Below, in pieces: positions 32,935-61,775 of a DNA stretch of 64,000 bases. Under the pieces are notes generated by a model. The model did not search any database, was not told the DNA's origin, and was given only the letters and a program-made list of their open reading frames with translations. Position 1 is the stretch's first letter; each line of letters starts with the position of its first letter. Source of the DNA: Eledone cirrhosa (lineage: Eukaryota). The translations under genes and the position numbers were made by a program. The stretch is taken from positions 15,624,001 to 15,688,000 of the forward strand of contig OZ024753.1 in the NCBI GenBank assembly GCA_964016885.1, written 5' to 3'.

Positions 32935-35900
32935 ACAGTCTTATCTTTGCATCAGTGTTAGCTGTAAGCCAGTCTTACCTATACACCAGTCTTAACTTTA
33001 CACCAGTCTTATCATTACACCAGTGTTATCTTTACACCAGTCTAACCTATACACCAGTCTTAACTATGCACAAGTCTTATCTTTACATCAGTCTTATCTT
33101 TACACCAGTCTTATCTTTACACCAGTCTTATCTTTACACCAGTCTTATCTTACACCAGTCTTATCTTACACCAGTCTTATCTTTACACCAGTCTTATCTT
33201 TACACCAGTCTTATCTCTACACCAGACTTATCTCTACACCAGTCTTATCTTTACACCAGTCTTATCTTTACACCAGTCTTATCTTACACCAGTCTTATCT
33301 TACACCAGTCTTATCTTTACACCAGTCTTATCTTTACACCAGTCTTATCTCTACACCAGACTTAGCTCTACACCAGTCTTATCTTTACACTAGTCTTATC
33401 TTTACACCAGTCTTACCTATACACCAGTCTTATCTTTACATCAGTCTTATCTTTACACCAGTCATATCTTTACATCAGTCTCACCTTTACACCAGTCTTA
33501 CCTATACACCAGTCTTATCTTTACATCAGTCTTATCTTTACACCAGTCTTATTTTTATACCAGTCTTATCTTTACACCAGTTTTATCTTTAAATCAGTCT
33601 TATCTTTACACTAGTCTTATCTTTACACCAGTCTTACCTATACACCAGTCTTAACTTTACACCAGTTTTACCTATACACCAGTCTTAACATTACACCGTC
33701 TTATCTTTACACCAGTCTTATCTCTACACCAGTCTTATCTTTACACCAGTGTTATCTCTACACCAGTCTTATCTTTACAATAGACTTAACTTTACATCAG
33801 TCTTATCTTTACACCAGTCTTACCTATACACTAGTCTTATCTTTACACCAGTCTTAACTTTACACCAGTCTTAACTTTACACTAGTTTTAACTTTACACC
33901 AGTCTTAACTTTACACCAGTCTTAATTTTACACCAGTCTTAACTTTACACTAGTCTCATCTTTACACCAGTCTTAACTTTACACTAGTCTTAACTTTACA
34001 CCAGTCTTATCTTTACACCAGTCTTATCTTTACACCAGTCTTACCTATACACTAGTCTTATCTTTACACCAGTCTTATCTTTACACCAGTCTTATCTTTA
34101 CACCAGTCATATCTTTACATCAGTCTCACCTTTACACCAGTATTACCTATACACCAGTCTTATCTTTACACCAGTCATATCTTTACATCAGTCTCACCTT
34201 TACACCAGTCTTACCTATACACCAGTCTTATCTTTACATCAGTCTTATCTTTACATCAATCTTATCTTTACATCAGTCTTATCTTTACACCAGTCTTATT
34301 TTTATACCAGTCTTATCTTTACACCAGTTTTATCTTTAAATCAGTCTTATCTTTACACTAGTCTTATCTTTACACCAGTCTTACCTATACACCAGTCTTA
34401 ACTTTACACCAGTTTTACCTATACACCAGTCTTAACATTACACTGTCTTATCTTTACACCAGTCTTATCTCTACACCAGTCTTATCTCTACACCAGTCTT
34501 ATCTTTACACCAGTCTTATCTTTACACCAGTGTTATCTCTACACCAGTCTTATCTTTACAATAGTCTTAACTTTACATCAGTCTTATCTTTACACCAGTC
34601 TTACCTATACACTAGTCTTATCTTTACACTAGTCTTAACTTTACACCAGTCTTAACTTTACACTAGTCTTAACTTTACACCAGTCTTATCTTTACACTAG
34701 TCTTAACTTTACACCAGTCTTAACTTTACACCAGTCTTATCTTTACACCAGTCTTAATTTTACACCAGTCTTAACTTTACACTAGTCTCATCTTTACATC
34801 AGTCTTAACTTTACACTAGTCTTAACTTTACACCAGTCTTATCTTTACACCAGTCCTATCTTTACACTAGTCTTAACTTTACACCAGTCCTATCTCTACA
34901 CCAGTCTTATCTTTACACCAGTCTTATCTCTACACCAGTCTTAACTTTACACTAGTCTTATCTTTACACCAGTCTTAACTTTAGACTAGTCTTATCTTTA
35001 TACCAGTCTTATCTCTACACCAGTCTTATCTTTACACCAGTCTTAACTTTACACAAATCTTATCTTTACACTAGTCTTAACTTTACACCAGTCTTAACTT
35101 TACACTAGTCTTAACTTAACACCAGTCTTAACTTTACACTAGTCTAAACTTTACACCAGTCTTATCTCTACACCAGGCTTATCTCTACACCAGTATTATC
35201 TTTACACCAGTATTATCTTTACACCAGTCTTAACTTTACACTAGTCTTATCTTTACACCAGCCTTACCTATACACCAGTCTTAACTTTACATCAGTCTTA
35301 TCATTACACCAGTCTTAACTTTACACCAGTCTTATCTTTATACCAGTCTTATTTTTATACCAGTCTTATCTTTACACCAGTTTTATCTTTACATCAGTCT
35401 TATCTTTACACTAGTCTTATCTTTACACCAGTCTTACCTATACACCAGTCTTAACTTTACACCAGTCTTACCTATACACCAGTCTTAACATTACACCAGT
35501 CTTATCTTTACACCAGTCTTATCTCTACACCAGTCTTATCTTTACACCAGTCTTATCTTTACACCAGTGTTATCTCTACACCAGTCTTATCTTTAAAATA
35601 GTCTTAACTTTACATCAGTCTTATCTTTACACCAGTCTTACCTATACACTAGTCTTATCTTTACACTAGTCTTAACTTTACACCAGTCTTAACTTTACAC
35701 TAGTCTTAACTTTACACCAGTCTTATCTTTACACTAGTCTTAACTTTACACCAGTCTTAACTTTACACTAGTTTTAACTTTACACCAGTCTTAACTTTAC
35801 ACCAGTCTTATCTTTACACCAGTCTTAACTTTACACTAGTCTCATCTTTACATCAATCTTAACTTTACACTAGTCTTAACTTTACACCAGTCTTATCTTT

Positions 35901-38900
35901 ACACTAGTCTTAACTTTACACCAGTCCTATCTCTACACCAGTCTTATCTTTACACCAGTCTTATCTCTACACCAGTCTTAACTTTACACTAGTCTTATCT
36001 TTACACCAGTCTTAACTTTACACTAGTCTTATCTTTATACCAGTCTTATCTCTACACCAGTCTTATCTTTACACTAGTCTTAACTTTACACCAGTCTTAT
36101 CTTTACACCAGTCTTATCTTTACACCTGTCTTAACTTTACACCAATCTTATCTTTACACTAGTCTTAACTTTACACCAGTCTTAACTTTACACTAGTCTT
36201 AACTTAACACCAGTCTTAACTTTACACTAGTCTAAACTTTACACCAGTCTTATCTCTACACCAGTCTTATCTCTACACCAGTATTATCTTTACACCAGTA
36301 TTATCTTTACACCAGTCTTAACTTTACACTAGTCTTATCTTTACACCAGCCTTACCTATACACCAGTCTTAACTTTACATCAGTCTTATCATTACACCAG
36401 TCTTAACTTTACACCAGTCTTATCTTTATACCAGTCTTATTTTTATACCAGTCTTATCTTTACACCAGTTTTATCTTTACATCAGTCTTATCTTTACACT
36501 AGTCTTATCTTTACATCAGTCTCACCTTTACACCAGTCTTACCTATACACCAGTCTTATCTTTACATCAATCTTATCTTTACATCAGTCTTATCTTTACA
36601 CTAGTCTTATCTTTACACCAGTCTTACCTATACACCAGTCTTACCTATACACCAGTCTTAACTTTACACCAGTCTTATCATTACACCAGTCTTAACTTTA
36701 CACCAGTCTTATCTTTATACCAGTCTTATTTTTATACCAGTCTTATCTTTACACCAGTTTTATCTTTACATCAGTCTTATCTTTACACCAGTCTTACCTA
36801 TACACTAGTCTTATCTTTACACCAGTCTTAACTTTACACTAGTCTTATCTTTACACTAGTCTTAACTTTACATCAATCTTAACTTTACACCAGTCTTATC
36901 TTTACACCAGTCTTAACTTTACACCAGTCTTAACTTTACACTAGTCTTAACTTTACACCGGTCTTATCTTTACACTAGTCTCATCTTTACACCAGTTTTA
37001 ACTTTACACTAGTCTTATCTCTACACCAGTCTTAACTTTACACTAGTCTTATATTTGCACCAGTCTTATCTCTACACCGGTCTTAACTTTACACTATTCT
37101 TATCTTTACACCAGTCTTATATCTACACCAGTCTTATCTTTACACTAGTCTTATCTTTACACCAGTCTTATCTCTACACCAGTCTTATCTTTACACTAGT
37201 CTTATCTTTACACTAGTCTTATCTTTGCACTAGTCTTATCTTTACACCAGTCTTTTCTTTACACCAGTCTAAACTTTACACCAGTCTTAACTTTACACTA
37301 GTCTTAACTTTACACTAGTCTTATCTTTACACTAGTCTTAACTTTACACTAGTCTTATCTTTACACCAGCCTTACCTATAGACCAGTCTTAACTTTACAT
37401 CAGTCTTATCATTACACCAGTCTTAACTTTACACCAGTCTTATCTTTATACCAGTCTTATTTTTATACCAGTCTTATCTTTACACCAGTTTTATCTTTAC
37501 ATCAGTCTTATCTTTACACTAGTCTTATCTTTACATCAGTCTCACCTTTACACCAGTCTTACCTATACACCAGTCTTATCTTTACATCAATCTTATCTTT
37601 ACATCAGTCTTATCTTTACACTAGTCTTATCTTTACACCAGTCTTACCTATACACCAGTCTTACCTATACACCAGTCTTAACTTTACATCAGTCTTATCA
37701 TTACACCAGTCTTAACTTTACACCAGTCTTATCTTTATACCAGTCTTATTTTTATACCAGTCTTATCTTTACACCAGTTTTATCTTTACATCAGTCTTAT
37801 CTTTACACCAGTCTTACCTATACACTAGTCTTATCTTTACACCAGTCTTAACTTTACACTAGTCTTATCTTTACACTAGTCTTAACTTTACATCAATCTT
37901 AACTTTACACCAGTCTTATCTTTACACCAGTCTTAACTTTACACCAGTCTTAACTTTACACTAGTCTTAACTTTACACCGGTCTTATCTTTACACTAGTC
38001 TCATCTTTACACCAGTTTTAACTTTACACTAGTCTTATCTCTACACCAGTCTTAACTTTACACTAGTCTTATATTTGCACCAGTCTTATCTCTACACCGG
38101 TCTTAACTTTACACTATTCTTATCTTTACACCAGTCTTATATCTACACCAGTCTTATCTTTACACTAGTCTTATCTTTACACTAGTCTTATCTTTGCACT
38201 AGTCTTATCTTTACACCAGTCTTTTCTTTACACCAGTCTAAACTTTACACCAGTCTTAACTTTACACTAGTCTTAACTTTACACTAGTCTTATCTTTACA
38301 CTAGTCTTAACTTTACACTAGTCTTATCTTTACACCAGCCTTACCTATACACCAGTCTTAACTTTACATCAGTCTTATCATTACACCAGTCTTAACTTTA
38401 CACCAGTCTTATCTTTATACCAGTCTTATTTTTATACCAGTCTTATCTTTACACCAGTTTTATCTTTACATCAGTCTTATCTTTACACTAGTCTTATCTT
38501 TACATCAGTCTCACCTTTACACCAGTCTTACCTATACACCAGTCTTATCTTTACATCAATCTTATCTTTACATCAGTCTTATCTTTACACTAGTCTTATC
38601 TTTACACCAGTCTTACCTATACACCAGTCTTACCTATACACCAGTCTTAACTTTACATCAGTCTTATCATTACACCAGTCTTAACTTTACACCAGTCTTA
38701 TCTTTATACCAGTCTTATTTTTATACCAGTCTTATCTTTACACCAGTTTTATCTTTACATCAGTCTTATCTTTACACCAGTCTTACCTATACACTAGTCT
38801 TATCTTTACACCAGTCTTAACTTTACACCAGTCTTAACTTTACACTAGTCTTCTCTTTACACTAGTCTTAACTTTACATCAATCTTAACTTTACACCAGT

Positions 38901-41900
38901 CTTATCTTTACACCAGCCTTAACTTTACACCAGTCTTAACTTTACACTAGTCTTAACTTTACACCGGTCTTATCTTTACACTAGTCTCATCTTTACACCA
39001 GTTTTAACTTTACACTAGTCTTATCTCTACACCAGTCTTAACTTTACACTAGTCTTATATTTGCACCAGTCTTATCTCTACACCGGTCTTAACTTTACAC
39101 TATTCTTATCTTTACACCAGTCTTATATCTACACCAGTCTTATCTTTACACTAGTCTTATCTTTACACCAGTCTTATCTCTACACCAGTCTTATCTTTAC
39201 ACTAGTCTTATCTTTACACTAGTCTTATCTTTGCACTAGTCTTATCTTTACACCAGTCTTTTCTTTACACCAGTCTAAACTTTACACCAGTCTTAACTTT
39301 ACACTAGTCTTAACTTTACACTAGTGTTATCTTTACACTAGTCTTAACTTTACACCAGTCTTAACTTTACATCAGTCTTATCTTTACACCAGTCTTATTT
39401 TTATACCAGTCTTATCTTTACACCAGTTTTATCTTTAAATCAGTCTTATCTTTACACTAGTCTTATCTTTACACCAGTCTTACCTATACACCAGTCTTAA
39501 CTTTACACCAGTTTTACCTATACACCAGTCTTAACATTACACCGTCTTATCTTTACACCAGTCTTATCTCTACACCAGTCTTATCTTTACACCAGTGTTA
39601 TCTCTACACCAGTCTTATCTTTACAATAGTCTTAACTTTACATCAGTCTTATCTTTACACCAGTCTTACCTATACACTAGTCTTATCTTTACACCAGTCT
39701 TAACTTTACACCAGTCTTAACTTTACACTAGTTTTAACTTTACACCAGTCTTAACTTTACACCAGTCTTAATTTTACACCAGTCTTAACTTTACACTAGT
39801 CTCATCTTTACACCAGTCTTAACTTTACACTAGTCTTAACTTTACACCAGTCTTATCTTTACACCAGTCTTATCTTTACACCAGTCTTACCTATACACTA
39901 GTCTTATCTTTACACCAGTCTTATCTTTACACCAGTCTTATCTTTACACCAGTCATATCTTTACATCAGTCTCACCTTTACACCAGTATTACCTATACAC
40001 CAGTCTTATCTTTACACCAGTCATATCTTTACATCAGTCTCACCTTTACACCAGTCTTACCTATACACCAGTCTTATCTTTACATCAGTCTTATCTTTAC
40101 ATCAATCTTATCTTTACATCAGTCTTATCTTTACACCAGTCTTATTTTTATACCAGTCTTATCTTTACACCAGTTTTATCTTTAAATCAGTCTTATCTTT
40201 ACACTAGTCTTATCTTTACACCAGTCTTACTTATACACCAGTCTTAACTTTACACCAGTTTTACCTATACACCAGTCTTAACATTACACCGTCTTATCTT
40301 TACACCAGTCTTATCTCTACACCAGTCTTATCTCTACACCAGTCTTATCTTTACACCAGTCTTATCTTTACACCAGTGTTATCTCTACACCAGTCTTATC
40401 TTTACAATAGTCTTAACTTTACATCAGTCTTATCTTTACACCAGTCTTACCTATACACTAGTCTTATCTTTACACTAGTCTTAACTTTACACCAGTCTTA
40501 ACTTTACACTAGTCTTAACTTTACACCAGTCTTATCTTTACACTAGTCTTAACTTTACACCAGTCTTAACTTTACACTAGTTTTAACTTTACACCAGTCT
40601 TAACTTTACACCAGTCTTATCTTTACACCAGTCTTAATTTTACACCAGTCTTAACTTTACACTAGTCTCATCTTTACATCAGTCTTAACTTTACACTAGT
40701 CTTAACTTTACACCAGTCTTATCTTTACACTAGTCTTAACTTTACACCAGTCCTATCTCTACACCAGTCTTATCTTTACACCAGTCTTATCTCTACACCA
40801 GTCTTAACTTTACACTAGTCTTATCTTTACACCAGTCTTAACTTTAGACTAGTCTTATCTTTATACCAGTCTTATCTCTACACCAGTCTTATCTTTACAC
40901 CAGTCTTATCTTTACACAAATCTTATCTTTACACTAGTCTTAACTTTACACCAGTCTTAACTTTACACTAGTCTTAACTTAACACCAGTCTTAACTTTAC
41001 ACTAGTCTAAACTTTACACCAGTCTTATCTCTACACCAGTCTTATCTCTACACCAGTATTATCTTTACACCAGTATTATCTTTACACCAGTCTTAACTTT
41101 ACACTAGTCTTATCTTTACACCAGCCTTACCTATACACCAGTCTTACCTTTACATCAGTCTTATCATTACACCAGTCTTAACTTTACACCAGTCTTATCT
41201 TTATACCAGTCTTATTTTTATACCAGTCTTATCTTTACACCAGTTTTATCTTTACATCAGTCTTATCTTTACACTAGTCTTATCTTTACACCAGTCTTAC
41301 CTATACACCAGTCTTAACTTTACACCAGTCTTACCTATACACCAGTCTTAACATTACACCAGTCTTATCTTTACACCAGTCTTATCTATACACCAGTCTT
41401 ATCTTTACACCAGTCTTATCTTTACACCAGTGTTATCTCTACACCAGTCTTATCTTTAAAATAGTCTTAACTTTACATCAGTCTTATCTTTACACCAGTC
41501 TTACCTATACACTAGTCTTATCTTTACACTAGTCTTAACTTTACACCAGTCTTAACTTTACACTAGTCTTAACTTTACACCAGTCTTATCTTTACACTAG
41601 TCTTAACTTTACACCAGTCTTAACTTTACACTAGTTTTAACTTTACACCAGTCTTAACTTTACACCACTCTTATCTTTACACCAGTCTTAACTTTACACT
41701 AGTCTCATCTTTACATCAGTCTTAACTTTACACTAGTCTTAACTTTACACCAGTCTTATCTTTACACTAGTCTTAACTTTACACCAGTCCTATCTCTACA
41801 CCAGTCTTATCTTTACACCAGTCTTATCTCTACACCAGTCTTAACTTTACACTAGTCTTATCTTTACACCAGTCTTAACTTTACACTAGTCTTATCTTTA

Positions 41901-44370
41901 TACCAGTCTTATCTCTACACCAGTCTTATCTTTACCCTAGTCTTAACTTTACACCAGTCTTATCTTTACACCAGTCTTATCTTTACACCAGTCTTAACTT
42001 TACACCAATCTTATCTTTACACTAGTCTTAACTTTACACCAGTCTTAACTTTACACTAGTCTTAACTTAACACCAGTCTTAACTTTACACTAGTCTAAAC
42101 TTTACACCAGTCTTATCTCTACACCAGTCTTATCTCTACACCAGTATTATCTTTACACCAGTATTATCTTTACACCAGTCTTAACTTTACACTAGTCTTA
42201 TCTTTACACCAGCCTTACCTATACACCAGTCTTAACTTTACATCAGTCTTATCATTACACCAGTCTTAACTTTACACCAGTCTTATCTTTATACCAGTCT
42301 TATTTTTATACCAGTCTTATCTTTACACCAGTTTTATCTTTACATCAGTCTTATCTTTACACTAGTCTTATCTTTACATCAGTCTCACCTTTACACCAGT
42401 CTTACCTATACACCAGTCTTATCTTTACATCAATCTTATCTTTACATCAGTCTTATCTTTACACTAGTCTTATCTTTACACCAGTCTTACCTATACACCA
42501 GTCTTACCTATACACCAGTCTTAACTTTACACCAGTCTTATCATTACACCAGTCTTAACTTTACACCAGTCTTATCTTTATACCAGTCTTATTTTTATAC
42601 CAGTCTTATCTTTACACCAGTTTTATCTTTACACCAGTCTTATCTCTACACCAGTCTTATCTTTACACTAGTCTTATCTTTACACTAGTCTTATCTTTGC
42701 ACTAGTCTTATCTTTACACCAGTCTTTTCTTTACACCAGTCTAAACTTTACACCAGTCTTAACTTTACACTAGTCTTAACTTTACACTAGTCTTATCTTT
42801 ACACTAGTCTTAACTTTACACTAGTCTTATCTTTACACCAGCCTTACCTATACACCAGTCTTAACTTTACATCAGTCTTATCATTACACCAGTCTTAACT
42901 TTACACCAGTCTTATCTTTATACCAGTCTTATTTTTATACCAGTCTTATCTTTACACCAGTTTTATCTTTACATCAGTCTTATCTTTACACTAGTCTTAT
43001 CTTTACATCAGTCTCACCTTTACACCAGTCTTACCTATACACCAGTCTTATCTTTACATCAATCTTATCTTTACATCAGTCTTATCTTTACACTAGTCTT
43101 ATCTTTACACCAGTCTTACCTATACACCAGTCTTACCTATACACCAGTCTTAACTTTACATCAGTCTTATCATTACACCAGTCTTAACTTTACACCAGTC
43201 TTATCTTTATACCAGTCTTATTTTTATACCAGTCTTATCTTTACACCAGTTTTATCTTTACATCAGTCTTATCTTTACACCAGTCTTACCTATACACTAG
43301 TCTTATCTTTACACCAGTCTTAACTTTACACCAGTCTTAACTTTACACTAGTCTTATCTTTACACTAGTCTTAACTTTACATCAATCTTAACTTTACACC
43401 AGTCTTATCTTTACACCAGTCTTAACTTTACACCAGTCTTAACTTTACACTAGTCTTAACTTTACACCGGTCTTATCTTTACACTAGTCTCATCTTTACA
43501 CCAGTTTTAACTTTACACTAGTCTTATCTCTACACCAGTCTTAACTTTACACTAGTCTTATATTTGCACCAGTCTTATCTCTACACCGGTCTTAACTTTA
43601 CACTATTCTTATCTTTACACCAGTCTTATATCTACACCAGTCTTATCTTTACACTAGTCTTATCTTTACACCAGTCTTATCTCTACACCAGTCTTATCTT
43701 TACACTAGTCTTATCTTTACACTAGTCTTATCTTTACACTAGTCTTATCTTTGCACTAGTCTTATCTTTACACCAGTCTTTTCTTTACACCAGTCTAAAC
43801 TTTACACCAGTCTTAACTTTACACTAGTCTTAACTTTACACTAGTCTTATCTTTACACTAGTCTTAACTTTACACCAGTCTTATCTTTACACCAGTCTTA
43901 TCTTTACACCAGTCTTAACTTTACACTAGTCTTATCGTTATACCAGTCTTATCTCTACACCAGTGTTATCTTTACACTAGTCTTATCTTTACACCAGTCT
44001 TATCTCTACACCAGTCTTAACTTTGCACCAGTCTTATCTTTACACCAGTCTTAACTTTACACCAGTCTTAACTTTACACCAGTCTTAACTTTACACTAGT
44101 CTTAACTTTACACTAGTCCTATCTTTACACCAGTCTTATCTTTACACTAGTCTTAACTTTACACCAGTCTTAACTTTACACCAGTCTTAACTTTACACTA
44201 GTCTTAACTTTACACTAGTCTTATCTTTACACCAGTCTTATCTTTACACTAGTCTTAACTTTGCACCAGTCTAAACTTTACACCAGTCTTACCTATACAC
44301 TAGTCTTAACTTTACACCAGTCTTATCTCTACACCAGTCTTAACTTTACACTAGTCTTAACTTTACACTA
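32935..44370. repeat. 11.4-kb satellite, 17-bp unit ACACCAGTCTTATCTTT (about 670 copies) with higher-order repeats
   Basis: Direct reading; variants CTAG, TTAACTTT, TTACCTAT. Confidence 0.98.
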
Positions 44371-44636: not shown

Positions 44637-45893
44637 AAATACCCTAGCAACACTGTATGTCAATATAGTACCCCTAAAACTTGCAATACCCTAGCAACAC
44701 TGTATGTCAATATGGTGCGCCTAAAACATGAAATACCCTAGCAACACTGTATGTCAATATGGTGCCCCTAAAACATGAAATACCCTAGCAACACTGTATG
44801 TTAATATGGTGCCCCTAAAACTTGAAATACCCTAGCAACACTATGTCAATATGGTGCCCCTAAAACTTGAAATACCCTAGCAACACTGTATGTCAATATG
44901 GTGCCCCTATAACATGAAATACCCTAGCAACACTGTATGTTAATATGGTGCCCCTAAAACTTGAAATACCCTAGCAACACTATGTCAATATGGTGCCCTT
45001 AAAACTTGAAATACCCTAGCAACACTGTATGTGAATATGGTGCCCCTGAAACATGAAATACCCTAGCAACACTGTGTGTCAATATAGTACCCCTAAAACT
45101 TGCAATATCCGAGCAACACTGTATGTCAATATGGTGCCCCTAAAACATGAAATACCCTAGCAACACTGTATGTCAATATAGTACCCCTAAAACTTGAAAT
45201 ACCCTAGCAACACTATGTCAATATAGTACCCCTAAAACATGAAATACCCTAGCAACACTGTATGTCAATATGGTGCGCCTAAAACTTAAAATACCCTAGC
45301 AACACTGTGTTTCAATATAGTACCCCTAAAACATGAAATACCCTAGCAACAGTATGTCAATATGGTGCCCCTAAAACTTAAAATACCCTAGAAACACTGT
45401 GTGTCAATATAGTACCCCTAAAACTTGAAATACCCTAGCAACACTGTATGCCAATATGGTGCCCCTAAAACTTAAAATACCCTAGAAACACTATGTCAAT
45501 ATAGTACCCCTAAAACTTGAAATACCCTAGCAACACTGAATGTCAATATAGTACCCCTAAAACTTGCAATACCCTAGAAACACTGAATGTCAATATAGTA
45601 GCCCCAAACCTTGCAATACTCTAGCAACACTGAATGTCAATATAGTACCCCTAAAACTTGCAATACCCTAGAAACACTGCATGTCAATATAGTACCCCTA
45701 AGACTTAAAATACCCTAGCAACACTGAATCTCAATATAGTAGCCCTAAACCTTGCAATACCCTAGCAACATTGAATGTCAATATAGTACCCCTAAAACTT
45801 GCAATACCCTAGAAACACTGCATGTCAATATAGTACCCCTAAAACTTGCAATACCCTAGAAACACTGCATGTCAATATAGTACCCCTAAAACT
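44637..45893. repeat. 47-bp minisatellite, about 27 copies (AAATACCCTAGCAACACTGTATGTCAATATGGTGCCCCTAAAACATG)
   Basis: Period 47 (ACCCTAGCAA at 44641 and 44688); some units are 45 bp. Confidence 0.95.
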
Positions 45894-49130: not shown

Positions 49131-49202
49131 ATATATTTTATCTGATGAGGACGTACTGAAAAAACAGCACAGTACCTCCAAAATATATATAATAAAATAT
49201 AT
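49131..49202 (+). ncRNA. Minimal type-I hammerhead, probably inactive (G12->A)
   Basis: atatattttat-CTGATGA-ggacgtactg...cagtacctcc-AAAA-tatat-ATA-ataaaatatat; close relative of 61712-61775. Confidence 0.6.
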
Positions 49203-49218
49203 TTTGATTAATTTGAAT

Positions 49219-51156
49219 CATCATCATCATCATGAACGTTTAACGTCCGTGTTCCACGCTTGCATGGGTTTGGACGGGGGTAGTCCCACTTGAGGCAAGA
49301 GTGATTGTCTTGCTCGCATAGGACTGTCTGGCAGGTTTTCTACAGTTGGATGCCCTTCCTAACACCAACCATATTTACAGTGTGGGTCTGGGAGGTTTTT
49401 ACCGTGTTGCCTACACGGCCACATTACAGCGTGGACTGTGTGTTTTTTGTCGTGACACCTACACGATCTCATTTGTTTCGGCCTGGATGGCGCGGCACCA
49501 ACATAACTTTACATAGGACAGGGTGGTGTGGATGGGTGGGGGTGGTGGCGGGACGGGGTGTATTTTGTTAGAGATGCCTACTGGCAAGGCGGGTCTTCTC
49601 TGTTACTGAGTACCGCCAAAGGTCTCGGTCCAGTGACATTGTCTTGGAGAGGTGTAAGTGTGTGAGGTCGGAGTTTATCAGCTCGTCCCAGGTTTTTCTA
49701 GGTCTGCCTATTCCGTGGCTACCGTCTATCTTTATTGCCCTGCACTTTGTTATACAGCTATCGACTTTCATGCGCATCACGTGTCCATACCAACGTAGCC
49801 TTCTCTCGAGTAAACAACATCTGATCCCTCTTATCTCTAATTTTTTCCTTAGTTCGTTTATGCTTTGCCGTTCACGTATATTACTGTTACACATCCAGCG
49901 GAGCATGCAAGCTTCGTTTCTCTCTAGTCTGCGTATATCCTCTGCACACAATGCCCAGGTCTCACTGCCATGCAACATTGCTGTTCGTATGCAGGCATCG
50001 TACAACCTGCCTTTCATTTTTAGGGAGAACCCTTTAGCAGCTAATAGTGGTATAAGCTCTCTGAACTTTTTCCAACCAGTTCTGACTCTAGCTACAGTAC
50101 TTTCAGAGCACCCTCCCCCACTGCTGATTTTATCGCCCAGGTAACGGAAGCTGTCCACTATTTCTATAGAACCCTCTGCGCAATTGAAAGAGCTAGTATT
50201 TTGTGGGCACTTGCTGCTACTTATTGCACCAGAACACCGGCCACATGTAAAATCTATGTTCTTAGTTAGCTTACCTGTGATCCCACTACATCTTTTATGC
50301 ACCCATACTTTGCATTTAGGACATAAAATGGAGTTTCTACCTACGCCTTTCCTACACACCGAGCACGACCATTTCCCAGAAGGGACCGCCGCCTTGTTTT
50401 CTTTCCTACAAACTAGAACTTTGGTCTTAGCCAGGTTAATTTTAAGTCCTTTTGACTCTAGGCCGTGCTTCCATGTTTGGAATTTCTTCTCTAGCTCGGC
50501 CATTGATTCCGCTATGAGTGTCAGGTCGTCTGCGTATAGGAGTTCCCATGGGCAGCCTGTCTTGAACTCCTCTGTTATAGCCTGAAGGGCAAAAATAAAT
50601 AGTAGGGGGCTGAGAACAGAGCCCTGATGGACGCCAACTTTTACGCTAAACTCTTCACTATATTCGTTGTTAATTCTAACCTTGCTGACTGTTTCTTTAT
50701 ACATGGCTTGTATAGCCCTCACAAGCCATTCGTCAACGCCTAGTTTTCTAAGAGCCCACCAGATAATGGAGCGGGGGACTCTGTCGAAGGCTTTCTCCAA
50801 GTCGACAAAAGCTAAGTAGAGGGGTTTACCTTTAGCTAGGAACTTCTCCTGTAGTTGTCGTACTATGAAAAGAGCGTCTGTGGTACTTTTGCCTGACACA
50901 AACCCGAACTGCATTTCATCTAGGTCAATTCTCTCTCTGATTAGTTGCGCTATTACTTTTTCCGTGACCTTCATGACCTGGTCGATTAATTTAATGCCTC
51001 TATAGTTACTCCTATCTAGGGCGTCTCCTTTACCCTTATAACAGTTAACGATGATGCTGCTATGCCAGTCCTTCGGAACAACCCCATTCTGTACGACTTG
51101 GTTAACTATGCGGGTGACCATGGTGTGTCCCACCGTGCCAGATGCCTTCAGCATCT
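49219..51156 (-). mobile_element. 5'-truncated RTE-clade LINE
   Basis: RT ORF plus 3' UTR ending GGACGTTAAACG...(ATG)n. Confidence 0.92.
49568..51154 (-). CDS. RTE-type reverse transcriptase (N-terminally truncated) with a PHD-like finger
   Basis: NYRGIKL, QFGF, FVDLEKAFDRV, GVHQGSVLSPLLF, YADD, FRYLG, HGSETW and RRLRWYGHVMR motifs; C4HC3 finger CSVC..CPKC..H..C..CGRC; 528 codons without a stop. Confidence 0.92.
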   Translation of the reverse strand: MLKASGTVGHTMVTRIVNQVVQNGVVPKDWHSSIIVNCYKGKGDALDRSNYRGIKLIDQVMKVTEKVIAQLIRERIDLDEMQFGFVSGKSTTDALFIVRQLQEKFLAKGKPLYLAFVDLEKAFDRVPRSIIWWALRKLGVDEWLVRAIQAMYKETVSKVRINNEYSEEFSVKVGVHQGSVLSPLLFIFALQAITEEFKTGCPWELLYADDLTLIAESMAELEKKFQTWKHGLESKGLKINLAKTKVLVCRKENKAAVPSGKWSCSVCRKGVGRNSILCPKCKVWVHKRCSGITGKLTKNIDFTCGRCSGAISSSKCPQNTSSFNCAEGSIEIVDSFRYLGDKISSGGGCSESTVARVRTGWKKFRELIPLLAAKGFSLKMKGRLYDACIRTAMLHGSETWALCAEDIRRLERNEACMLRWMCNSNIRERQSINELRKKLEIRGIRCCLLERRLRWYGHVMRMKVDSCITKCRAIKIDGSHGIGRPRKTWDELINSDLTHLHLSKTMSLDRDLWRYSVTEKTRLASRHL

Positions 51157-56846: not shown

Positions 56847-56917
56847 TATTTTATTATGCGCATTTCAAAAACAAATATCATCATGGGATGATATCTGCGT
56901 TCTCCTCAGATAAAATA
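56847..56917 (-). ncRNA. Minimal type-I hammerhead ribozyme
   Basis: tattttat-CTGAGGA-gaacgcagatatcatc ccat gatgatatttgttttt-GAAA-tgcgc-ATA-ataaaata; 8-bp stem I; palindromic stem III ATGCGCAT. Confidence 0.75.
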
Positions 56918-57025: not shown

Positions 57026-57376
57026 AGGTGCATAGCTTAGTGGTTAGAGCATTGGCCTTGCAATCGAAAGGTTGTGAGTTCAATTCTCAGACCAGGTGAT
57101 GTGTTGTTTCCTTGAGCAAGACACTATATTTCACATTGCTCCAGTTTATGCAGCTGTAGAAAGTCCCACTGCAAAGTGGTCGTGGAGGTGCCACAGCAAA
57201 AAACCACCCAGCCCACACTGTAAAGTGGTCGTGGAGGTGCCACAGCAAAAAACCACCCAGCACTCACTGTAAATGAGGTTGGTGTTAGGAAGGGCATCCA
57301 GCTGTAGAAATCAAGCCAGAATCAGTTCCCCTCCCACCCTTGCAAGCAGGAAAAAGTGTACGTAAAATGATGATGA
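57026..57376 (+). mobile_element. tRNA-derived SINE with an internal 49-bp duplication
   Basis: Matches 4213-4546. The module CACTG(C/T)AAAGTGGTCGTGGAGGTGCCACAGCAAAAAACCACCCAGC occurs twice. Confidence 0.9.
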
Positions 57377-57511: not shown

Positions 57512-58910
57512 CAATACACTATATATACATTCAACAAACAATACACTATATATACATTATATATACATTCAACAAACAATACACTATATATACATTATAT
57601 ATACATTCAACAAACTATACACTATATATACATTCAACAAACAATACACTATATATACATTATATATACATTCAACAAACAATACACTATATATACATTA
57701 TATATACATTCAACAAACAATACACTATATATACATTATATATACATTCAACAAACAATACACTATATATACATTATATATACATTCAGCAAACAATACA
57801 CTATATATACATTATATATACATTCAACAAACAATACACTATATATACATTATATATACATTATATATACATTCAACAAACAATACACTATATATACATT
57901 ATATATACATTCAACAAACAATACACTATATATACATTATATATACATTCAACAAACAATACACTATATATACATTATATATACATTCAACAAACAATAC
58001 ACTATATATACATTATATATACATTCAACAAACAATACACTATATATACATTATATATACATTCAACAAACAATACACTATATATACATTATATATACAT
58101 TCAACAAACAATACACTATATATACATTATATATACATTCAGCAAACAATACACTATATATACATTATATATACATTCAACAAACAATACACTATATATA
58201 CATTATATATACATTCAACAAACAATACATTATATATACATTCAACAAACAATACACTATATATACATTATATATACATTCAACAAACAATACACTATAT
58301 ATACATTATATATACATTCAGCAAACAATACACTATATATACATTATATATACATTCAACAAACAATACACTATATATACATTATATATACATTCAACAA
58401 ACAATACACTATATATACATTATATATACATTCAGCAAACAATACACTATATATACATTATATATACATTCAGCAAACAATACACTATATATACATTATA
58501 TATACATTCAATAAACAATACACTATATATACATTATATATACATTCAAAAAACAATACACTATATATACATTATATATACATTCAGCAAACAATACACT
58601 ATATATACATTCATATATACATTCAACAAACAATACACTATATATACATTATATATACATTCAACAAACAATACACTATATATACATTATATATACATTC
58701 AGCAAACAATACACTATATATACATTATATATACATTCAACAAACAATACACTATATATACATTATATATACATTCAACAAATAATACACTATATATACA
58801 TTATATATACATTCAACAAACAATACACTATATATACATTATATATATACATTCAACAAACAATACATTATATATACATTCAGCAAACAATACACTATAT
58901 ATACATTCAC
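57512..58910. repeat. 38-bp minisatellite AATACACTATATATACATTATATATACATTCAACAAAC
   Basis: Period 38 (ATACACTATA at 57541 and 57579); built from 11-bp TATATATACAT subunits. Confidence 0.95.
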
Positions 58911-59041
58911 ATATATATCGCTATTTCAGAGCACCAATTCTACTTTTCAATTTTTGCTGGACCGGCAACCACTCTGTATAATCAGTTCCTGATTATTACT
59001 GGAATTCTATAAGAATCCAACATTCATAATTTTCAACAAGC

Positions 59042-59107
59042 AGGGAGAGTGCTAAGCTCTGAGGAATACCAACAGTATGAAACAGAGATCTGTCAGCTTA
59101 TCTCCCT
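59042..59107 (+). ncRNA. Canonical type-I hammerhead ribozyme
   Basis: Stem I AGGGAGA-gtgc-TAAGCT pairs with AGCTTA-TCTCCCT; core CTGAGGA (59059-65); stem II ATAC-caaca-GTAT; GAAA (59079-82); stem III ACAG-agat-CTGT; GTC site with predicted cleavage after 59094. Confidence 0.85.
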
Positions 59108-59244
59108 TTGTTTGTTGAAAAAAGAAGTAAGTGACATAGTCACTACTTTAAAACAATAGCGTAAGGTCTTCAAAATGCTTTTAATTAAGCATACAGTTTA
59201 TTGCAAAATACACTATGTATACATACATATATATATATATATAT

Positions 59245-59836
59245 TTATATATAAAAAACATGTGAAGAAAGAATACTGCGTGGTTGCACATGGGTTACAT
59301 ATGATAAAAATAGTCCTTCGTCAGTGATTTTCCAACCATCATTGGTATTTCATCGCTTTAAAAATCATATACCTCCAGTTGGTGCGAGCAATAGCTAAAT
59401 AAAGCTATTGGGACAAGTAAATCGCATAAAGCAAGCGAGACAAGTAAACAAACATAGAAGGATAGCAATGCAAAGATAGGAAAAAACAAGCACATGGGAG
59501 TCCGATCAGCTTAAACTGTGTGGATTTCATGGGCGAGAGAGAGAGCAGACCGTCCGACGCAAGTGAGGTGTGAGCAAGAAGAGAACCCACTACAGGCCAA
59601 ACGGGAGGAAGTGAGAAGGAGAGAAGCAGAGAGTGAGTGAGTGGAAGTGCGAGGAAGAGGCCAGTCGAGAGAAAGTGTAACTGACAGAGGAGGCGAAAGA
59701 AGGTGAGGGAAACAGAGAGAGCGGGGAAGCAGTAAGAGAGAAACAGACAAATGCACTGGGGAAATTATATATAAAAAACATGAGAAGAATGAATACTGCG
59801 TGGTTGCACATGGGTTACATATGATAAAAATAGTCC

Positions 59837-59837
<1 letters not shown>
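59245..59837. mobile_element. 520-bp unit with 73-bp terminal direct repeat, inserted in (TA)n
   Basis: 59245-59317 recurs at 59765-59837 with 2 mismatches; (TA)n on both flanks; non-coding. Confidence 0.65.
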
Positions 59838-59869
<32 letters not shown>

Positions 59870-61211: not shown

Positions 61212-61365
61212 GGATGATGCATGACATACCCTGACATGTTACATGGTTAAGATTCAGTCATGGTAGTGATTAACATATTACAAAATTCAATATTTATACC
61301 CTAATATTGAGAACATGAGATAACATAATGCAAACAATAGAGAGGGTATGTACAAACATTGCTAC

Positions 61366-61412
61366 TGCTCTGATGATTCCAAACGATAGTTTGGAAAAAA
61401 CGATTGTCAGCA
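61366..61412 (+). ncRNA. Type-I hammerhead, probably inactive (G12->A)
   Basis: tgct-CTGATGA-ttccaaac gata gtttggaa-AAAA-cgatt-GTC-agca; perfect 8-bp stem II. Confidence 0.55.
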
Positions 61413-61610: not shown

Positions 61611-61672
61611 TTTTATTATATATATTTCGAAGGTACTGTGCTGTTTTTTCAGTATGTCCTCGTCAGATAAAA
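61611..61672 (-). ncRNA. Minimal type-I hammerhead ribozyme
   Basis: ttttat-CTGACGA-ggacatactgaaaaaacagcacagtaccttc-GAAA-tatat-ATA-ataaaa. Confidence 0.75.
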
Positions 61673-61711: not shown

Positions 61712-61775
61712 TTTTATCTGACGAGGACATACTGAAAAAACAGCACAGTATCTTCGAAATATATATATAATAAAA
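61712..61775 (+). ncRNA. Minimal type-I hammerhead ribozyme
   Basis: ttttat-CTGACGA-ggacatactgaaaaaacagcacagtatcttc-GAAA-tatatat-ATA-ataaaa. Confidence 0.75.

Follow-up and report, generated by a model that had tools for sequence, protein, structure and literature searches.

A thousands-copy 318-bp hammerhead repeat in Eledone cirrhosa, a non-LTR retrozyme likely copied in trans by PLEs

The window, meaning the whole 64,000-nucleotide stretch of Eledone cirrhosa DNA analysed here, contains a hammerhead motif that an earlier note, made from the letters alone, judged to be the best candidate for an active monomeric ribozyme. The locus raises the question of whether this ribozyme stands out in its genome or is one copy of something larger. 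The earlier reading overlooked the 318-bp element carrying the hammerhead. With a probability of about 0.8, we read that element as a non-coding non-LTR retrozyme of thousands of copies, likely copied in trans by enzymes of Penelope-like elements (PLEs) into (TA)n tracts, and the window copy as an ordinary, slightly decayed member that is predicted to misfold.

The hammerhead motif and the repeat that carries it

The motif lies on the forward strand. Proximal stem I (6 bp, 59053-59058 paired with 59095-59100) leads into the core segment C3-A9, CUGAGGA (59059-59065; N7 is G, and the 3-8 pair of this copy is C3-G8), followed by a 4-bp stem II with loop CAACA (59066-59069/59075-59078), closed by A10.1-U11.1, and a GAAA segment (59079-59082). 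Positions 59079-59094 hold G12-A15.1, a near-palindromic 12-nt stem III, U16.1 and C17; stem III pairs 59082-85 with 59090-93 around the loop AGAU, giving three Watson-Crick pairs plus A15.1-U16.1. From the descriptor match, the scissile bond is predicted to follow C59094, the C17 of a GUC triplet, as the earlier note had it. Distal stem I has its 5' strand at 59030-59049, with minority letters at 59040, 59043 and 59046, and its partner at 59102-59121; the 3' strands of both parts of the stem together occupy 59095-59121. The extension of stem I described earlier was borne out, and the hairpin reaches beyond the limits then given, to 59030/59121. Between the two parts, UGC (59050-59052) faces U59101 across an internal loop and is the predicted partner of loop II.

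The core of a type I hammerhead was found: C3-A9, G12-A15.1, U16.1, H17 and an open stem I. The core nucleotides, the GUC triplet and the three helices reported earlier are all present, and a descriptor requiring stems of at least 6, 4 and 3 bp with short loops had no match in 20 Mb of simulated order-2 Markov sequence. Judged by its sequence, this is a genuine type I motif. It is not, however, fully canonical, as had been claimed: the closing pair 10.1-11.1 is A-U, not G-C, in the window copy and its subfamily (other subfamilies have G-C), and Rfam returned no hammerhead family, either for the entire 64-kb window at the gathering score or for 58880-59840 at E-values up to 10. An A-U pair at 10.1-11.1 slows hammerhead cleavage. 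Passages of PMC4209133 describe G10.1-C11.1 as highly conserved in canonical hammerheads, and a similarly weak pair, U-U, is given for axolotl HHR_Amex2 in parts of PMC7229834; the G-C pair is conserved yet not obligatory. The stem I internal-loop strand reads U-R-C or U-R-G in most subfamilies. With both loops present and this pattern conserved, a tertiary contact joining stem I to loop II is predicted for the family by analogy with passages of PMC6155905, a review with which the general statement about such contacts in the earlier note agrees.

The hammerhead sits in a 348-bp retrozyme copy (58889-59236, forward strand) made of one 318-bp unit (58919-59236) and 30 bp of the preceding unit, or 1.1 units. 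An alignment of 30 loci placed homology at 58889-59236 of the window and revealed head-to-tail repetition of the unit. The copy terminates at what is the 'short' 3' end of the family and is followed by a (TA)n tract (59237-59253), the family's usual target. A 26-bp segment (58919-58944, forward strand) that forms an optional 3' 'tail' in other copies is internal here. The unit has 34% G+C, a longest ATG frame of 28 aa and one 11-nt purine run, and no RNA polymerase III A or B box was found in it. On the basis of frames, boxes and purine runs, it has the layout of a non-LTR retrozyme, being non-coding, below 50% G+C and without an LTR/PBS/PPT arrangement, and its length falls within the 150-450 bp range of the tandem repeats of such elements. 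By these sequence features, we class the repeat as a non-LTR retrozyme, a further member of an established class; literature searches on cephalopod or octopus hammerheads, non-autonomous Penelope elements and core 3-8 variants yielded no description of the 318-bp family.

Upstream of the copy lies a locus-specific 38-bp minisatellite of about 36 copies (57512-58888, forward strand). It opens with the element's own terminal word, it is built up of 19-20 terminal bases of the element and a 12-base word taken from the element's stem I, and all 31 genome-wide matches to the array junction motif lie inside 57512-58888. Units of 27, 38 and 49 bp are mixed in it, suggesting slippage, and by its sequence the array is most likely a minisatellite expanded from the 5' junction of the insertion. 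The flanks of the window copy share no word longer than 5 bases, (TA)n targets being such that they mask target-site duplications. Across the (TA)n tract, the copy adjoins a second repeat (59245-59837) whose 73-bp direct terminal repeats are separated by 520 bp; its relatives in L004 are about 80% identical, and no hammerhead was recognised in it. A weak tRNA match (57027-57094, forward strand, 30.2 bits) directly follows another (TA)n and continues into repeat sequence; it is likely the head of a tRNA-derived SINE.

A search of the 3.0-Gb source genome with the window repeat gave 1,517 candidates, of which the 40 that were scored proved 95-100% identical. Approximately 4,200 core-intact hammerheads were counted genome-wide, in solos, partial tandems and arrays that reach 16 or more units (16 consecutive full units in L172, 13 in L173), so the copy-number check proposed earlier shows that the window motif is not special. 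The period is 314-322 bp in all subfamilies. Exact matches to the window's core plus stem II numbered 228, and those to the 26-bp tail motif 4,102 (control 0). Cores with U3-A8, a known hammerhead variant according to passages of PMC4209133, make up over half of the family (2,533 matches, control 34); C3-G8 cores gave 1,704 (control 2) under a pattern slightly stricter than that for other cores. The 3-8 pair was matched, as C-G or U-A, in 4,237 exact-pattern matches and mismatched in 230 (109 C-A and 121 U-G), the latter being partly unrelated background. A tree of 101 units formed a subfamily ladder that is not firmly rooted; further subfamilies came to light in three contig runs from one sample. 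A distant subfamily (L038 516-859) is 68% identical and has a 6-nt palindromic stem III and a GUA triplet; that copy is tandem and adjoins a younger one. At another locus (L201, G000:C1:56078496-56078846), three tail motifs occur at 163-bp spacing, which suggests that a deletion gave rise to a derivative of half the unit's length that forms tandems too.

Stem II takes several forms among 89 hammerheads from 74 loci: AUAC/GUAU, ACAC/GUGU, GUAC/GUAC, ACGC/GCGU and U-U-closed forms. In 40 chosen sequences, three of the four stem II pairs had changes on both sides, pairing cells reached 90.4% (85.1% when shuffled) and the covariation score 0.252 (0.156 when shuffled, reached in 0/500 shuffles; 0.074-0.100 when slid), measures that relatedness inflates, the underlying counts being a few subfamily-founding events rather than thousands. 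Nine pairs showed double changes against 6.7 in shuffles, which is not clearly above chance (33/500 shuffles reach 9). Compensatory change across subfamilies affects stems I-III and the core 3-8 pair. Because these elements covary, we conclude from the sequences that the family's ribozyme has been under selection in the past.

Predicted folding and mode of cleavage

At 6 of 290 positions the window copy departs from its subfamily majority, as given by 45 aligned segments; this is the median divergence (2.1%). The earlier note held the motif to be recently inserted or retained; a subfamily divergence of about 2% bears out a fairly recent insertion; retention found no support. Three of the six differences fall in stem I, on the distal 5' strand, where the minority letters at 59040, 59043 and 59046 are common to 6, 1 and 2 of 38 other copies, respectively. 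At 59046 (forward strand) an A replaces the family G, which breaks one pair and offers a shifted register. The strands AGGGAGA/UCUCCCU can pair as originally written, but the 'GUGC bulge' beside them is a product of this G-to-A change and is peculiar to the window copy; in the family, G59049 pairs with C59102, the internal loop is UGC/U and the distal stem is 20 bp long.

We folded the copies with ViennaRNA. The predicted pairing probability of proximal stem I was 0.01 in the window copy and 0.71 in the family majority, and the low value persisted in five differing sequence contexts. In silico reversion of A59046 to the family letter restored 0.71, and another copy (L021) with the same A but a compensating U also scored 0.71. 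By this model, A59046 by itself is predicted to explain both the shifted register and the misfold. The description 'apparently intact' does not hold for the predicted fold of lowest energy, in which CUCUG (59057-61) is paired with CAGAG (59083-87) and stems I and III are disrupted. Nor can the window copy be called the best candidate: among 52 copies with equal stem III length, 37 scored at least 0.71 and it was the fourth lowest. The catalytic secondary structure had a predicted probability of 0.0007, against 0.04 for the family majority, at a penalty of approximately 4.5 kcal/mol, which tertiary packing might partly repay, as the model neglects tertiary contacts and Mg2+; slow cleavage after refolding is therefore possible. 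Subfamilies with short stem III were also near zero as monomers in this model. No second hammerhead of the 318-bp family occurs in the 64-kb window, and with a single one the copy could not release a monomer. Thus, the window copy is probably impaired on these predictions, an ordinary, slightly decayed insertion expected to misfold. On its own, such a motif carries little weight: hammerheads of this kind number in the thousands in animal genomes, and the present copy is below average. For L021, the cut-to-cut circle was predicted to fold at -70.1 kcal/mol (z -5.1 against 60 shuffles), with stem I contributing much.

The term 'monomeric' also fits the family poorly, as its stem III is self-complementary even in the loop and the locus has only one family hammerhead. 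Across 142 motif matches at 103 loci, the commonest stem III was a perfect palindrome or had one central mismatch or unpaired base; the perfect forms had the loop AGCU or GGCC, or were 10-nt. The change from AGCU to GGCC retains self-complementarity, which is superfluous for a monomer hairpin, and its retention indicates cleavage as a dimer. Predicted energies for the commonest variants were 0 to -1.8 kcal/mol for the hairpin versus -6.9 to -24.3 kcal/mol for the dimer. The window subfamily, whose AGAU loop makes its 12-nt stem III the least palindromic, could fold as a monomer, albeit through a weak hairpin (-1.8 kcal/mol); its dimer, with a tandem G-A mismatch, was at -12.2 kcal/mol. According to PMC4209133, PMC3088659 and PMC6765202, it is an established rule that type I motifs carried by repeats have a palindromic stem III and cleave as dimers. 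Taken together, the modelled energies and palindromes point to a family that would cleave mostly as a dimer, or double hammerhead. The series of core and stem III variants is a convenient natural panel for the biochemistry of dimer versus monomer hammerheads. We considered a one-way shift of stem III from dimer-type to monomer-type but abandoned the idea, because the ladder has no firm root and 12-nt perfect palindromes stand beside the window subfamily.

Insertion structure and PLE partners

For the enzyme that moves animal retrozymes, PLEs are called 'a strong candidate' in PMC7229834; here, the insertions themselves bear a PLE footprint of tail and inversion. Their 3' ends take one of two fixed positions separated by 26 bp, and (TA)n often comes next. 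Head-to-head arms were present at 39 of 74 loci. A first set of such pairs included 28 that could be classified; 27 of these carried the 26-bp tail at one end and not the other, where independence would give 13.8 (P = 8e-8). A second set (20 loci, 12 pairs) had a one-ended tail in 9/9 classifiable pairs, and a third (80 loci, 56 pairs), for which wider merging distances were used, in 42/46, with both tails in one pair and neither in three. Overlapping duplicate loci were removed ahead of each count. Pooled, 78 of the 83 classifiable pairs had the tail at one end, 24 of all 107 pairs being unclassified; 60 of the 100 later loci had been selected by the tail motif, which conceals 'neither' but not 'both' outcomes.

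Blocks longer than one unit made up 43 of 123. No accumulation of 5' ends was seen around the cut site: the interval 59088-59102 held 8 of 123, against 5.8 if uniform, in a sample biased to copies bearing the hammerhead. Long blocks and spread 5' ends fit either a circle or an uncut multimer as template. For PLEs, PMC8557442 describes partial tandems beside which lies an inverted copy, a tail that is often present at one end, and a microsatellite bias. According to PMC11167929, two internal RT start sites bracket the tail, which is unique to PLEs, and uncut RNA is the main template. The partial tandem, inverted arm, one-ended tail and microsatellite target were all observed in the 318-bp family. 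This insertion structure supports the view that the retrozyme moved like a PLE; it does not support membership among PLEs.

Three PLE families were found in the genome, with 25,173, 55,304 and 12,911 first-look candidates, of which 20, 20 and 30 loci were read. The first includes an intact ORF (L122 1303-3489; 775 aa stop to stop, with RT and GIY-YIG) that has its own hammerhead (3876) about 390 bp downstream. Two of the three families carry their own minimal hammerheads, one of these with U3-A8. No parent of the unit was found among the three, as it shares no sequence with them save the last 7 bases of one tail, and the translated unit had no match to PLE proteins. An RT and GIY-YIG ORF between pLTRs is absent from the unit, and no shared coding 5' flank was seen at 185 loci, examined out of several thousand and most of them on one contig. 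Likewise, of the 82 free 5' flanks at these loci no two agreed in the sequence upstream of the junction, and the 185 thus yielded no parent with an ORF. The family of 12,911 candidates (L262 1860-5573, reverse strand; L264-L293) is abundant, and its frames reach 791 aa. It has a long 3' UTR and a minimal hammerhead whose core is U3-A8; its tail, about 60 bp long, ends in the same 7 bases as the retrozyme tail.

The unit is joined directly to PLE sequence, the remainder of the PLE being missing, at three of the 185 loci. At L130, one arm is a PLE 3' end and the other a retrozyme; at L262, the short end of the unit leads into a 5'-truncated ORF; and at L263, the 5' part of a PLE leads into a 5'-truncated unit. 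The simplest reading is template switching by the PLE enzyme, although the joins could be insertions with deletion. A further locus (L012) is a plain nested insertion.

In the mechanism we propose, multimeric transcripts from tandem source loci would undergo cleavage after GUC, for the most part as double hammerheads formed via the palindromic stem III, and the 318-nt monomers would circularise. A PLE RT-endonuclease acting in trans would nick AT-rich DNA at (TA)n tracts, and reverse transcription, with a circle or an uncut multimer as template, would begin at two internal sites 26 nt apart, approximately 140 and 170 nt downstream of the cut. The products of such copying would be partial tandems and head-to-head arms, with a one-ended tail. 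The PLE footprint predicts two exact RT start sites, after 59236 and after 58944. The window copy would contribute at most weak cutting of a read-through transcript. We lean slightly, at a little better than even odds, towards the fuller account in which PLEs mobilise in trans a free-standing retrozyme unrelated to them, as a PLE-only tail, copying past the cut site and template-switch fusions would suggest, and in which the core switched from C3-G8 to U3-A8 and stem III was rebuilt repeatedly.

Alternatives, known relatives and neighbouring elements

If the window copy were an intact and efficient monomeric cutter at low Mg2+, standing out among its relatives, its GUC and complete core bases would be as expected, and the long distal stem would keep its ends together. 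Its stem III, with three Watson-Crick pairs, A15.1-U16.1 and a 4-nt loop, is longer than the 1-2 bp that PMC4209133 gives as usual for type I motifs of metazoans, and single coral and mussel retrozyme copies cut during transcription in passages of PMC7229834. We nevertheless consider this unlikely: the catalytic structure is predicted at 0.0007 rather than 0.04 in all five contexts, the copy ranks fourth worst of 52 and has A10.1-U11.1, its divergence is typical of neutral decay, and, according to Li, Clavereau and Pollet 2026 (bioRxiv 10.64898/2026.07.22.740005), just 1 of 9 retrozyme dimers from Xenopus showed cutting in vitro. That the hammerhead was instead domesticated and serves the host, like the intronic RECK motif, is barely credible for a young high-copy repeat in a satellite-rich region, with three of six differences in stem I and one of them pair-breaking.

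The PLE-like insertion structure would equally suit a unit that is the pLTR of an unseen autonomous PLE, its copies being 5'-truncated ends and not an independent retrozyme. Xenopus pLTRs and retrozymes are related according to the same preprint, and our 185 loci come from several thousand, mainly from one contig. Variable truncation, however, could not produce head-to-tail units at a fixed period, up to 16 of them consecutive. The 82 free 5' flanks had no upstream sequence in common, and the PLE protein matches beside units were nested or one-off, of differing families and positions; we regard a pLTR origin as quite improbable. Spread at the DNA level as a satellite or minisatellite, with the hammerhead a dead relic, would account for the long arrays, but copies are dispersed, have fixed 3' ends and show 5' truncations as well as inversions, which indicates reverse transcription, and the core 3-8 pair and stems were rebuilt compensatorily between subfamilies, which leaves this explanation very little room. 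We therefore keep to a PLE-copied non-LTR retrozyme as our reading.

Metazoan non-LTR retrozymes described in passages of PMC7229834 include those of coral, mussel and axolotl, together with newt satellite 2, Schistosoma Sm-alpha and Dolichopoda pDo500. Like these, the 318-bp family has a type I hammerhead of canonical type, with 6-bp stem I and a looped extension and 4-bp stem II, in a non-coding unit of 34% G+C that occurs from monomers to multimers in thousands of copies, with a predicted self-paired circle. Unlike them, it is found mainly as dispersed copies of 1-1.5 units, has a longer, fully palindromic stem III and carries U3-A8 in over half of its members; head-to-head arms and a one-ended tail go unmentioned in that paper's main text, where the word 'inverted' does not occur. 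With endonuclease-positive PLEs, as described in passages of PMC4209133, PMC8557442 and PMC11167929, the family shares partial tandems, an inverted 5'-truncated arm, the one-ended tail and (TA)n targeting. It also shares a palindromic stem III with PLE pLTR hammerheads and the U3-A8 core with Schistosoma PLE motifs reported in PMC4209133. It differs from PLEs in having no ORF, a fixed 318-bp period, a full-size rather than minimal hammerhead and no sequence match to the three local PLE families; its tail is 26 bp, compared with 30-40 in the PLE descriptions. In bioRxiv 10.64898/2026.07.22.740005, vertebrate retrozymes resemble it in class, size range, mixture of monomers, dimers and multimers, and proposed PLE partnership. 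There the PLE evidence is co-occurrence and pLTR phylogeny, whereas here it is insertion structure and direct joins; unlike those retrozymes, the 318-bp family yielded no pLTR parent, and the word 'tail' is absent from the preprint's main text.

The window holds several other elements. Seven minimal hammerheads of another type, with long stem II and a 6-8-nt palindromic stem III, lie at 56909, 60925, 61203 and 61666 on the reverse strand and at 61718, 62381 and 49142 on the forward strand; those at 61666 and 61718 form a head-to-head pair, and that at 49142 is without G12. They look like truncated PLE ends. A hammerhead-like motif of a third family (61361-61409, forward strand) has GUC and a long stem II, and its junction is irregular around G12-A15. 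Adjacent satellites occupy 8467-32736 (21 bp x 1,156), 32936-44368 (17 bp x 673) and 44637-45893 (47 bp x 27). On the reverse strand, 49571-51154 holds an open frame of 528 aa that matches RVT_1 and a PHD finger and is a fragment of a non-LTR retrotransposon.
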